Assembly: GCA_964016885.1 (NCBI GenBank)
Contig: OZ024743.1
Coordinates: forward strand, 203,608,001-203,672,000
From: Eledone cirrhosa
Lineage: Eukaryota
Length of the DNA: 64,000 bases
Direction: 5' to 3'
Shown here piece by piece: positions 3,949 to 62,864 of the stretch. The notes under the pieces were generated by a model. The model had not been told where the DNA came from, searched no databases, and was given only the letters and a program-made list of their open reading frames with translations. Made by a program: the position numbers and the translations under genes. Every line of letters starts with the position of its first letter. Position 1 is the first letter of the stretch.

Positions 3949-4387
3949 GTATATATATATATGTATATATTTATATATATATATATATATATATATATAT
4001 ATACATATATATATATTTATATATATATATATATATATATACATAATACATAATATATATATATATATATATATATATATATATATATATATATATATAT
4101 ATATATATATATATATATATATATATATATATATATATATATATATATATATATATATATATATATATATATATATATACACACATATATGTAGATAGAT
4201 CTACCAAGAGTTTACGGTAGTGTCTAATCCGTATGAAGAACTCAATGTAATCCGGATATCATGGAAAGAAGAGATGCAATGAAATATCACCCTCGGTGAA
4301 AGACAAACGGAATACAGAGTCAAGATAAAATATTAAAAAAATAATGAATAAAACAATGAAACAGTTCCTTATATTAAACAAAAAAAG

Positions 4388-4541
4388 TTCATTATTTAAC
4401 GATCGTTTCTAGGATATATATGTGTTAGAATTGGCATGCATATTCAACAGATCTATGTACAAAATTATACAAAATTATACAAACTATCAAAATTAAATAT
4501 ACATACCAACACATATATATGCCGTCTTCAGAAATAATGAA
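4388..4541 (-). ncRNA. Hammerhead ribozyme with long stem II (H1 3' end, inverted arm)
   Basis: Reverse complement of 10674-10827. Confidence 0.75.
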
Positions 4542-5208
4542 ATATATTTATTGATAATAACAACAATTCAAAATTACAGGTCTGTTTGGGAACGGAGTTC
4601 AAATTGACCAATGAAAATACAAAAAGTTTATACAGTTAGGTGTGTGTATATATGTAATTAACTTCGTTCACAGATATGCATAAAGATATATGTTCACATG
4701 CATACGCATGCCAAAAAGATGTATGTAAATACAAAAATTCAAGGCTAATGTCTCTGTATGTTTATAATCTACAGATAAAATACGTATTAAAACAAATATA
4801 CACACACATTCATATACTCACACATATACGTACATTCACACACACACGCGCGTATACGCATAAACATACACACAACCACGAACATACACACACACACACA
4901 CACCCACACACATATATATGTGTGTATATACTATTATCATAAGCATATGGACATTAATGCGCGCACATAAACACTGCCACACATATTTAGATCCAGATAC
5001 AGAAAGTAGGTGGGGGGTGAGAGGTCAGTATTTAGCGGTGTCAGCAAGCTGCCTATTTATAAATGTATCTATAAATTTAGAAATAAAAATAAAAGAAAAA
5101 TAAAAAAGAAATATATCAAGAAAATATATATATATATATATATATATATATATATAAAACAAGTAAAATATAAAATATACATTTTCAAAATATAAAATAT
5201 ACATACTC

Positions 5209-7393
5209 AAATTTAAAAAGTATAAATCTGTCTTTCAAAAGGACCTTCATTCTACCTTATTGGACCTAAAAAAGTCTAAAAAAATCCATGTCCACTCGGA
5301 CAAAACTGGTAACTTGTATCACATGGATATTGAAGATTATAATGAATTCATATATAAAGAACTCAGGAAAAATTATAAAAAAATCTAATAATGCGTCACT
5401 CACCAACATCAACAACAAAACACACAACATAGTAAAAAAACTAAACATTGAAGATAGAACTGAACCTTTGGCATTGAAAAGACCACACTTCAACCTGAAG
5501 GATCATAAATCAAACTTTAACTCAAATCCTTCTATAAGACTTATATGTCCCTCCAAATCTGATATTGGAATAATTAGCAAAAAAATTTTGGATAGAGTCA
5601 TCCCACAAATAAGAAAACATGTTATTTTACCACTCTGGGAAAACACTTCCCAGGTAATTAACTGGTTTAAAAATATTAGATGTAAATCTTCTGCTTCATT
5701 TCTACAATTTGATATAGATAATTACTATTCTTCTATATCACCTATACTCCTGAACAAAGCATTGATATTTGCTAAAAATAGATCTAACTTAACTTTGGAT
5801 GACATTAATATTATTACACATGCTAGACTAACACTTATTGAATTTCAGAATGAATACTGGACCAGAAACACATATAGTAATCTATTCGATATTACTATGG
5901 GTTCAAGCGATTCCGCCCAAATTACTGATCTTGTGGGCCTCTTTCTCCTTTTCAACATAAATGCCTCCTTTCCCCACCTTAAAGGTGGTTTATATCGTGA
6001 TGACTGTCTTCTTCTTTCCAACAACCTTAGCATTTCAGAAATAGAAAAAAACGAAAAGCATATTAGAACTTTCCTTAAAGACTATTATAGTCTTCATATT
6101 ACTTTTGAAAAAACAAGTAAAGTAGTAAATTTCCTAGATATAACTTTAGACTTAGCTACGGGTATCTACCAACCTTACCATAAACCCAACCAAAACTTAC
6201 ACTACATACACTCACAATCTAATCACCCTAAATCTATCCTTAAAAACCTTGCATATAATATATCACATAGAATTTCTAACCTTTCTTCTAACCAAGATGT
6301 ATTTGATAAAAATGCGACCTTCTATAACGAAGCTCTAGATAGAAGTGGCCACAAAAATAGATTAGAATATATACCTTCTACTAAAAATACTATAAACATA
6401 CAACCTAATATTACCAACAAACACCAAATGAAAAGTACACACCTAAATGCCACCCACACTATACCCCAAAATACCAACAACTCTTCTAATATAAAGTATA
6501 GTAACTCTCAAAAAACTACTCATCATACAACTCTAATAAATGTTAATAATAATACTCCTAATAAACAAGATAAAACACCTAAATCTACAAATCTAACTAA
6601 AAATGTGCGTGGTGAGATCATTAACATTAATCCTCCTAGTAAACATCACGATACAACCTATAAAAATAATAAACAACATAGAAACCGTAATAGACGGGTT
6701 ACTTGGTATAATGCTCCATTTAATTTACAAATTAAGGATAATATTGCTAAAAAAATTTTTTATATCCTGGAGAAAAACTTCCCGCCAAACCACAAATACC
6801 ATCAAATCTTAAATAGGTCTACAGTTAAATTCTCATACTCAACAACAAATAACATAAAACAAAATATAAGTGCCTATAATGCATATAAATGTAAGAATAC
6901 CATAAGTATACCACCAATACATCAAACTAACCATAATATCTCCTCAAATACAGAATTAACGAAAGGTTGTAACTGTAGAAACAAAGCAAACTGCCCATTA
7001 AAAGGAAATTGTCTTGTTAACAACATAGTTTATAAATGTAATGTTAAAACTAAAGATTCTATTTGTTCATATATAGGAGCTACTTCTAACAATTTTAAGG
7101 CAAGGTTTAATACCCACAAACATAGTTTTAAAAATGCCGCACTGGCTAATACAACATCTCTAGCAGAAAAAATCAATAGTTATAAAAATAAGAATATAGA
7201 ATATGATATGACCTGGAGTGTGCTCAAAAGAGCCACTCCTTATCAAAATAATAGAAATGAATGTAGATTATGTTCCCAAGAACTATTTGAAATAATGAAA
7301 TCTAAGGATATCCTATTAAATAAACGACAGGAATTAATTATATCGTGTAATCATAAACTAAGAAAAACATTTAAATATTATAAACCTAATTAA
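5209..7393 (+). pseudogene. PLE RT + GIY-YIG endonuclease polyprotein, 5'-truncated, one +1 frameshift in the A-run at ~5376-5382
   Basis: Upstream frame reads HSDKTGNLYHMD as in ORF 52215-54506. Motifs QFDIDNYYSSI, MGSSDSA, LYRDD, CNCRNKANCPLKGNC, IVYKC..YIGAT, CRLCSQE, LLNKRQE. Confidence 0.92.
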
Positions 7394-61261: not shown

Positions 61262-61426
61262 TATGGTGAACTAACTGTTGTGTAACCACTTATATATATA
61301 TATATATATATATATGAATGTATGTATAGTATATTTGGCAATATACCGTATGTTTAATTAAAAACATTTTGAAGACCATACGCTATCGGTTTTAAAGTAG
61401 TGACTATGCCACTTCTTTTATATATA

Positions 61427-62116
61427 TATGAATTAGAATTGGTGCTCTGAAATAGCGATTTATACATGAATGTATATATAGTATATTTGGCAATATACTG
61501 TATGCTTCATTAAAAACATTTTGAAGACCTTGCGCTATTATTTTAAAGTAGTGAATATGTCACTTACTTCTTTTTTCAACAAACGAAGGGAGATAAGTTG
61601 AAAGATCTGTTTCATACTGTTGGTAATCATCAGACCTTAGCATTCGCCTTTGCCTGTTGAAAATTATAGATGTTGGATTCTTATATAATTCCAGTAATAA
61701 TCAGGAACTGATTATACACTACATTAAAATAAAAGCGCAAGGTCTTCAAAATGTTTTTAATTAAGCATACAGTATATTGCCAAATATACTATATATACAT
61801 TCATGTATACATCGCTATTTCAGAGCACCAATTCTAATTTTCAATTTTTGCTGGACGGGCAATCGCTCTGTATAATCAGTTCCTGATTATTACTGGAATT
61901 CTATAAGAATCCAGCATCTATAATTTTCAACAGGCAAAGGCAAGTGCTAAGCTCTGATGATTACCAACAGTATGAAACAAATATGTCAGCTTATCTCCCT
62001 TTGTTTGTTGAAAAAAGAAGTAAGTGACATAGTCACTACTTTAATATAATAGCGCAAGGTCTTTAAAATGTTTTTAATTAAGCATATAGTATATTGACAA
62101 ATGTACTATATATACA
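61427..62116. mobile_element. R2 retrozyme-like family (~317-bp unit), inverted + partial tandem; a further fragment lies at 61313-61418
   Basis: 61427-61718 inverted relative to 61720-62116; HHRs at 61594-61639 (-) and 61948-61993 (+). Confidence 0.82.
61948..61993 (+). ncRNA. Minimal type I hammerhead ribozyme
   Basis: taagct-CTGATGA-ttac.caaca.gtat-GAAA-CA.aata.TG-TC-agctta. Confidence 0.82.
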
Positions 62117-62308
62117 TTTATATATATATGTATATATATGTATACACACACACATATATATATATATATATATATATATATATATATATATATATATATA
62201 TATATATATATATATATATATATATATTTATATACATATATATATATATGAATGTATGTATAGTATATTTGGCTATATACCGTATGTATATATATACATA
62301 TATATATA

Positions 62309-62864
62309 TTTCGTTTCTGAATTTGTTTAGCAGTATACTTTATCTGAAAACGTGTGTTGAAACCGATATTGTTATACTTTGGGAGGGTCATGTTGCCAAT
62401 AAGAAATACACGCACCAGACGCTTTCACTCCAATTTATTATAAATTAAATTATAAATTTTAAAAAATTTATAAATTTTCGGTTGGTTGGCTGGTTCCATA
62501 TTTTGTCAAAGTTCTTTCGTCACACATTCTGTGACCTCATCAGTAACCGGGGATTCTTTTCTTTGTTTTTTCCCTCTCCTTTGTTCTGTCCTACGCCATC
62601 TAGTTTTTCAAGCGTAGGACAGAACAAAGGAGAGGCAAAAAACAAAGAAAAGAATCCCCGGTCACTGATGAGGTCACAGAATGTGTGACGAAAGAACTTT
62701 GACAATATATGAACAACCGCCCGGTTGTGGAACCAACCAACCAACCAACCGGAAATTTATAATTTTTTTTAAATTGATAATTTAATTTATAATAAATTGT
62801 TGTGAAATTAACTGGTGCGTGTGTTTCTTATTGGCAACATGACCCTCCCAAAGTATAACAATAT
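62309..62864. mobile_element. Family P1 palindrome with HHRs at 62505-62547 (-) and 62661-62703 (+)
   Basis: gtca-CTGATGA-g-gtcaca.gaatg.tgtgac-GAAA-gaac-TT-tgac; arms meet at ~62596-62612. Confidence 0.83.

Follow-up and report, generated by a model that had tools for sequence, protein, structure and literature searches.

Inverted insertions of Penelope-like elements in the Eledone cirrhosa genome nearly always combine one long and one short end, each Hydra-type end lying beside a copy of a putative bulged RNA stem

Inverted insertions of Penelope-like elements (PLEs) and of hammerhead-bearing, retrozyme-like repeats were analysed in a 64-kb stretch of the Eledone cirrhosa genome (contig OZ024743.1, here C4, 203608001–203672000; called the window) and across the 3.0-Gb assembly. 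Retroelements inserted in (TA)n crowd the window. Where two arms of one family stand head to head, one in most cases stops at a short end (S) and the other at a long, tailed end (L); this one-long-one-short pairing was confirmed in the window and genome-wide. In Hydra-clade PLEs, represented in the window mainly by the family H1, the tail appears to be the stretch that separates two copies of a single signal, a predicted RNA stem. We consider it probable that such insertions arise by twin internal priming, in which each stem docks one reverse transcriptase (RT) subunit and a single RNA serves to prime both (TA)n strands, the first at S and the other at L.

The inverted arms described in the first-pass annotation were visible by self-BLAST of the window once microsatellites had been masked; without masking, (TA)n matches swamped the comparison. 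All 26 coordinates named in that annotation were element/(TA)n junctions with the sequences it gave. The genome was searched with queries from upstream of the short end, so that matches were not selected by end type; the best 40 candidates were scored and 30 loci were kept per query. Family-aware classification of 183 same-family head-to-head insertions in (TA)n gave 161 pairs of L with S (LS), 5 of S with S (SS), 3 of L with L (LL) and 14 with an off-site end; the idea that inverted pairs always combine a long and a short end thus held for most pairs and failed as an absolute rule. The set includes three near-identical neighbouring pairs that arose by local duplication, and a handful of very short pieces that may be spurious. 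The (CA)n artefacts of one family were removed, family G45 was dropped because its matches came through a (CA)n run, and G39 was merged with G06. Since the families had been defined from asymmetric insertions, 32 defining copies were subtracted by hand for the test, which gave 129 versus 8 (p = 3e-29). Exact-pattern lists, which are independent of the family library, yielded 11 LS, 1 LL and 0 SS pairs among 137 listed places, against 4.7, 6.4 and 0.9 expected (p = 2.7e-4); the LL case (L402) was genuine. In a family-blind scan, 75 of 90 TA-flanked inverted insertions were asymmetric in 864 kb of contiguous sequence (the surroundings of the window and two stretches centred on known matches). 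After all loci had been merged to 1.54 Mb, overlapping the first set, 145 of 163 were asymmetric, and some of the 18 symmetric rows were R2 copies mis-sorted through internal TA runs.

H1 matches in the genome ended at S or 134 nt further on, at L. A same-family inverted partner was found in 15 of 40 H1 regions fetched (16 pairs), and all pairs were L+S; six of these 15 regions had been chosen on the ground that the lists already contained both of their ends. Full-length H1 insertions were looked at in 15 regions, and all five in which both ends could be resolved were L+S. The retrozyme R1 gave 13 LS pairs and zero inverted exceptions among those inspected, and a signature common to autonomous PLEs and hammerhead retrozymes, as had been suggested, was present. 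The first end classifier was unsuitable for H1 and P1. Some L ends joined (TC)n or (CA)n rather than (TA)n (L155, L186, L007–L030 and the pattern lists); the preference for a (TA)n target is not absolute.

Both ends were sharp. Genome-wide, all 73 H1 breaks joined to TA fell in two clusters within a 230-nt module, and 52 of 56 breaks of the family at window position 34291 lay on two exact bases; the fixed breakpoints predicted earlier were present here, while the short end of R1 and R2 was a cluster of nearby AT sites and not a single base. Both S and L were internal and lay on TAT/ATA microhomology common to the target, which agrees with the internal AT-rich microhomology proposed for the short end. 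Full-length H1 sequences continued through L into the 5'UTR (5' untranslated region) and the ATG. Read-through past L was also found in five more families, and the tandem units of R1 and R2 continued through L. The predicted hammerhead cuts lay upstream of S, at about 70 nt in H1 and 230 nt in R1; because the arms cross these cuts, the template would be RNA that is uncut or has been re-ligated, as for the anole element. Upstream partial copies in H1 reached 131–711 nt (11 of 16 arms resolved), compatible with circular and linear tandem templates alike. The possibility that H1 transcription starts at a fixed point, about 275 nt upstream of S, was considered and rejected, as the apparent start was a subfamily similarity boundary.

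Just past S, tails of unrelated families carried the motif RCUC-helix-loop-helix-(2-nt UY bulge)-GAGY, which is predicted to form a stem (stem 1). It was present in 18 of 34 families versus 2.1 in shuffles, and bulges of 0, 1 and 3 nt gave only 6, 6 and 2. With sequence-only anchors (26 of 37 families anchored, some wrongly), pairs 1, 5, 7 and 8, four of the six variable pairs, covaried (p = 0.006, 0.006, 0.004 and 0.0002), and inner pairs were formed with the 2-nt bulge in 59/78, versus 13–38 for other bulge sizes. The motif was first noticed in the same tails, so these in-genome figures for stem 1 are descriptive and the independent test is that on loci outside the genome. A second copy (stem 2) followed L in seven of the eight families with read-through copies: H1, G00, G02, G04, G06, G09 and G10 (imperfect). 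It was found without selection in H1, G00, G09 and G10 (the last two by eye), and through a pattern requiring CTC only in G02, G04 and G06. The break modes before stems 1/2 were 4/4 nt in H1, 5/3 in G00, 4/6 in G02 and 5/3 in G06, within a range of 3–6 nt before RCTC.

Outside the genome, 78 Hydra-like loci from marine metagenomes were collected, of which 49–50 were kept after removal of near-duplicates and of loci with little upstream DNA. The stem lay upstream of the ATG, and 3' of the hammerhead where one was matched, in 29 of 50 loci, compared with 3 for the reverse strand and 1.7 after shuffling. A strict structural scan found at least one stem in 33 of 49 loci and two in 12 of 49, spaced 55–83 nt, with 0/49 on the reverse strand; the 3' box alone occurred two or more times in 28 of 49, versus 1/49. 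Both boxes were visible in an alignment of 24 hand-picked loci. At pair 1 of these stems, G-C and U-A switched together (51, 2, 0, 6), the U-A cases coming from three possibly related loci. TAT/ATA lay within 10 nt before 41 of 59 stems versus a background of 28%, and in 8 of 12 loci scored by script (each locus once) a microsatellite-joined end lay 0–8 nt ahead of a stem; two more stems that were recognised by eye alone bring this to 10 of 12. Searches of the text of the open literature and a word search of the supplement of PMC8557442 (first places only) returned neither a twin stem nor a quantified L+S pairing. Tailed inverted insertions themselves are a known kind of PLE insertion; the cis element that is present in duplicate, with a copy at either end, appears to be new and clade-wide.

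These positions suggest the following course for twin internal priming. Two subunits, each with RT and endonuclease (EN) activity, would dock as a dimer on stems 1 and 2 of one RNA, and their GIY-YIG domains would nick both strands of (TA)n. Each nicked 3' end would anneal to the UAU register 3–6 nt 5' of its own stem, and each RT would extend toward the RNA 5' end. Since each subunit would leave its own stem uncopied, S copies would be without both stems, L copies would keep stem 1, and the tail would equal the inter-stem spacer. The two cDNA 3' ends would be joined by microhomology and fill-in, which would produce the inverted repeat. A two-site scheme of this kind, with different signals, is likely for P1, R1, R2 and the Neptune-type element as well. 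More tentatively, and short of what we would call probable, a clade-wide twin docking motif (stems about 60 nt apart, each after a UAU register) may make a telomerase-related RT dimer a double-ended integrator that primes both strands from one RNA, at internal sites that would be programmable, possibly on a hammerhead-made circle. Structured RNA beside a short alignment region, extending the end of a simple-repeat DNA, resembles telomerase. The first-pass annotation had proposed that the two ends are primed differently; in Hydra families L and S lie on like microhomology beside copies of one signal and look primed alike. Its interpretation as a whole was partly supported.

Arm reach was measured in 79 pairs and resolved in 67; 12 were left out as censored or with large gaps, and others had no anchor. 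S reached further in 23 of the 67 pairs and L in 16, and both stopped within 5 nt of each other in 28. Some 5-kb S arms stood opposite L arms of 35–145 nt, and the S arm was longer also in L291–L293. Inner junctions showed an overlap of up to 11 nt or a filler of up to 12 nt. Together with the independent arm lengths, these junctions fit two end-joined cDNAs and contradict fold-back of an L-primed cDNA. The stops of equal-length arms clustered near the hammerhead, at points specific to each family, which would be expected where both cDNAs run into the same RNA 5' end or barrier. The distance between arms was 0.022 within an insertion versus 0.045 between insertions (n = 62, p = 7e-6), and the own partner was nearest in 43. 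A whole-arm nearest-neighbour comparison in H1 was clear for 2 of 7 insertions, internal repeats blurring the rest.

The two arms could instead derive from two RNAs, an asymmetric complex or successive priming using L on one RNA and S on another, with the stems still setting the positions. About nine mixed-family head-to-head pairs were found versus about 170 of the same family. They include C5:81283576 (420 nt), C1:375126754 (821 nt), C4:114746686 (644 nt), C4:80801641 (978 nt) and L153, and combine among others Hydra with R1 and Hydra with Neptune-type arms; (TA)n was absent between the arms. At C5:81283576 an H1 S arm meets an R1 L arm and at C1:375126754 a G05 L arm meets a P1 S arm, the arms directly joined. 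Such pairs may reflect two RNAs or deletions that came afterwards, and on both views the strict rule does not extend to them: by hand, 5 were LS, 3 SS and 1 LL, so that L+S was followed less (p = 0.001). Directly joined arms of different families are what two RNAs would give, and on a single RNA one RT would have to displace 4–5 kb of the other's cDNA to yield the double full-length insertions. However, mixed pairs are few and their L+S pairing is weaker, the arms of an insertion have subfamily variants in common, and 28 of 67 pairs stop at most 5 nt from the same 5' point; we regard two RNAs as unlikely.

Resolution by EN appears somewhat less likely still. Here the hairpins would act at the DNA level, within a cDNA that is tandem or circular and that would be cut at the adjoining TA-like pseudo-target and joined to (TA)n; an endonuclease pseudo-target was also part of the proposal in the first-pass annotation. 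Both ends do lie on target-mimicking TAT/ATA, the text of Craig 2021 (PMC8557442) credits the tail to EN resolution, and a requirement of the Drosophila virilis tail for EN recognition of plasmid DNA is cited in PMC11167929. However, the tail ends of the anole element were mapped to RT start sites (PMC11167929), the stems make use of sense-strand G-U pairs, and arms of independent length that are end-joined internally are not readily explained by cutting.

Fold-back, in which the L-primed cDNA snaps back and is copied back to S, corresponds to the self-priming proposed for palindromic junctions in PMC3846280. Many short insertions are indeed near-perfect palindromes with near-identical arms, as shown by the equal reach of 28/67. 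A fold-back copy, however, could not outgrow the L arm, and the second arm was not contained in the first when S was the longer arm, as in the 23 pairs, in L291–L293 and in the 5-kb S arms. The junctions also varied between insertions and carried filler, and the mini-insertion junctions inspected did not come from natural hairpins. Fold-back was rejected as a general route and is very improbable overall. Equally doubtful is the version of the first-pass annotation, in which L corresponds to the RNA 3' end and S alone is internal: the transcript of an L-ended copy would enter (UA)n right past L, so that homology priming is possible for some L arms, but sequences read through L into the 5'UTR and open reading frame (ORF) or the next unit, the hammerhead cuts lie far from L, and L has its own stem and microhomology. 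L as an RNA 3' end or as a hammerhead cut was rejected.

Duplication of ready-made structures was rejected as well. As the first-pass annotation had noted, independent insertions have the same outer ends: two R1 insertions were 89% alike as direct copies and the arms inside each were 95–99.6% alike, similarity between the two H1 insertions ranged from 75% (3' part) to 92% (ORF), and both the inner junctions and the flanks differed, which excludes segmental duplication for the window pairs. Copying of a ready-made palindromic unit does not fit inner junctions that differ in nearly all insertions listed.

Several observations weigh against twin internal priming as proposed, or narrow it. Genuine LL or SS exceptions exist (L402, C4:203567261 and C5:80647841). 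In 25 of the 40 H1 regions no same-family inverted partner lay within about 9.6 kb and many arms were solo, so the L+S rule covers inverted pairs only. P1, R1, R2, the Neptune-type element, G05, G13 and G19 follow L+S without the Hydra stem, and the stem is therefore not a universal cause. The outer helix was part of the minimum-energy fold in only 10 of 26 anchored families, some of them mis-anchored, and an intact stem 2 was not found after L in the read-through copies of G03. Because both stems stand together only at the junction of pseudo-long terminal repeat (pLTR) and ORF, ORF-length arms need either an RNA that is tandem or circular, or priming on a (UA)n run reached by read-through. 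Shared arm variants show one source locus and not one molecule, and arm conversion could mimic them; the comparison of unit registers in R1 and R2 for a single-molecule origin had too few variants to be informative. In vitro, the start site of the Anolis Poseidon (PAc) protein was the same for either strand (PMC11167929).

H1 has a single 817-aa ORF with an RT and, C-terminally, a GIY-YIG domain (YRDD and NIIYKC...SYIGAT read by eye). It carries DKT (HSDKTG), an RWR variant of RWK (RRVRWRA), a CxCX5C linker (CNCRNKANC), CxxC (CRLC) and CxH (CNH), and its EN is without CCHH; GxKF was not seen. Pfam gave no match to the H1/Hydra frames of the window, and the 81 homologues found were unnamed or misnamed. 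A type I hammerhead motif with palindromic stem III was matched by pattern in the pLTR (58702–58840, +); it was not among the Rfam matches listed for the window, which were miRNA artefacts and sub-threshold HH9 only. H1 is inserted into (TA)n, and its unit of about 5 kb (4.2–5.4 kb) exceeds the <3 kb given as a descriptive, non-defining Hydra trait. By these motif hallmarks rather than by placement in an RT tree, H1 is assigned to the Hydra clade. Its 3'UTR has repeats, and between RT thumb and EN linker lies an Asn/Thr/Gln-rich low-complexity stretch (6590–7000; equivalents in 52215–56650) that resembles the N-rich inserts of rotifer Penelopes (PMC3846280). The short families G00, G02, G03, G04 and G06 also run into Hydra-type ORFs, and most mini-insertions would thus be truncated ends of autonomous families. 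The element at 42596/45306 is Neptune-like (CxxxxxCxxC linker, GIY-YIG with CCHH), and P1 leads into a different, non-Hydra PLE-like ORF. R1 is an ORF-less 466-nt tandem repeat with a predicted type I hammerhead per unit (Rfam HH9, E = 6e-6 in three units, below the gathering score), and R2 is a similar ORF-less repeat with a spacing of about 322 nt and type I hammerheads.

The first H1 insertion of the window consists of an L arm (4191–5119, −), with tail, putative stem 1 at 4240–4320 and hammerhead motif at 4397–4531, and an S arm (5206–10888, +), with a 5'-truncated RT and GIY-YIG ORF at 5270–7393, which stops at the S site. The second is composed of an S arm (49986–54560, −; open frame 52215–54560) and an L arm (54562–59040, +; open frame to 56650). 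In the latter, stem 1 (ACUC/GAGU with UU bulge, predicted) occupies 58909–58989 (+), beginning 4 nt past the S site at 58904; stem 2 is missing from this copy, since it sits 4 nt past L. A solo L-ended H1 arm of another subfamily lies at 33523–34219, and its upstream sequence matches the double full-length insertions L294–L297.

The other inverted insertions show the same asymmetry. S is left and L right in the first R2 insertion (11582–12310; hammerhead core unmatched in the copy at 11582), the first P1 insertion (15069–15518; hammerhead-like core 15222–15254, −), the insertion at 20862–21528 (imperfect stem 1 at 21424–21464, +) and the palindromic mini-insertion of the autonomous Hydra family G00 (34292–34498; stem 1 at 34426–34449, +). 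The Neptune-type fragment (42598–45306), from which the Hydra stem is absent, has a long S arm left and a tailed arm right. L is left and S right in the first R1 insertion (16340–17526; hammerheads 16632–16672, −, and 17265–17305, +), at 45482–46162 (imperfect stem 1 at 45526–45600, −), in the second R2 insertion (61427–62116; hammerhead core 61954–61978, +) and in the second P1 insertion (62309–62864). The second R1 insertion (47404–49313) has an L arm (−) of 3.5 units of 466 nt and an S arm (+) of 260 nt, with hammerheads at 47698, 48164 and 48630 (−) and 49052 (+). A second Hydra-like family (59112–61291) has a long L arm left and an S arm right, an ORF fragment at 59432–60835 (−) and an unbulged stem variant at 59152–59171 (−). 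Tails measured 134 nt in H1, about 74 nt in R1 and about 27–36 nt in R2. The P1 tail was present as described, with a length of 56–62 nt and not about 65 nt. The asymmetry claimed for the single insertions 20862/21528, 34291/34498, 42596/45306, 45481/46163 and 59112/61291 was verified, with tails of 109, 77, 33–42, 123 and 67 nt.

Both P1 ends have an identical AATAT|CG context. Other complementary segments lie near non-Hydra ends, as a putative helix that would span L in the Neptune-type element (42598–45306 and the L251–L270 read-through copy), R1 (47404–49054) and R2 (11840–12310), and one that would span S in P1 (15414–15480). In G05 the 5' point is fixed, some 136 nt upstream of its S anchor, and two direct solo copies (13031–13229 and 14746–14943) have (TA)n on both sides. 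Two direct tandem units of about 320 nt at 46261–46808, between (TA)n tracts and not inverted, each have a hammerhead-like core (46305 and 46626) and form a third retrozyme-like family. Copies of a Neptune-type RT region at 1–903 and 44267–45169 are 96% identical, the former running on to an N-terminal frame at 1179–1859. A near-complete long interspersed nuclear element (LINE) at 23144–26280, with APE-like and RT frames (Pfam RVT_1), ends at a (TA)n tract, and related 3' fragments lie at 13560–14318 (−) and 15590–16220 (+). The RT with C-terminal zinc finger and restriction-like tail at 39245–41242 (−), adjoining a (TGTA)n run, is presumably an R4/Dong-type LINE. The window also contains a 434-nt direct tandem pair (18765–19702), an exact 84-nt direct repeat (37602–37685/38342–38425) and two palindromes outside the assigned families (32942–33042 and 30501–30837).

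In LINE-1 twin priming, a single RNA primes both nicked strands and microhomology links the resulting cDNAs, which gives an inversion; one start lies at the poly(A) end and the other at a variable internal site, and the copied parts are largely non-overlapping. In the insertions described here, by contrast, neither site varies, both are internal, and the overlap of the arms is complete.

Hydra-clade PLEs are described in PMC8557442 as having DKT, a C-terminal GIY-YIG that lacks CCHH, a hammerhead, a (TA)n target and a tail on one end only. These features, together with RW(R), CxCX5C, CxxC, CxH and the tandem/inverted structure, are shared with the elements described here. The tails given there are 30–40 nt and the units <3 kb, whereas tails here were 67–160 nt in Hydra families, 56 nt in P1 and 74 nt in R1, with 33–42 nt only in the Neptune-type element, and H1 is about 5 kb. 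Near-obligate L+S pairing and the duplicated bulged stem, both present here, are undescribed in the text of that paper that was compared. The origin of the PLE tail and inverted arm is stated there as an open question, and the steps after initiation are given as unvalidated in PMC11167929; one-sided tails (PMC8557442) and two internal starts (PMC11167929) are already published.

The closest parallel is the PAc protein, which nicks and extends both AT-rich strands in vitro from two internal RNA sites and was modelled as a dimer (PMC11167929). As here, the two sites lie 3' of the hammerhead at the pLTR-ORF junction, with the tail between them and an uncut RNA template, the PAc sites being starts in vitro and those of E. 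cirrhosa genomic ends. Initiation by PAc takes place within the ORF, in an AC-rich stem-loop whose start site is described as lacking homology to the target (PMC11167929), whereas both sites here are in the 5'UTR on TA microhomology, each with its own stem copy and one per target end. A duplicated, covarying element 3–6 nt from each end is a likely binding site for a telomerase-sister RT. If twin docking is correct, it would explain the PLE tail, the inverted arm and the pLTR in one step, and the motif would be a transferable signal by which any RNA could be inserted from an internal start. It also gives a rule for annotation: an S-ended copy has lost both signals and an L-ended copy retains one.

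Retrozymes have been argued to be PLE derivatives (PMC7229834; bioRxiv 10.64898/2026.07.22.740005). The non-LTR retrozymes of these reports are, like R1 and R2, tandem ORF-less units with type I hammerheads that co-occur with PLEs, and as presented there the link rests on co-distribution and phylogeny. In E. cirrhosa, R1 bears the PLE insertion signature and has an arm joined to a Hydra arm; the L+S signature ties hammerhead retrozymes to the PLE machinery by insertion anatomy, beyond co-occurrence.

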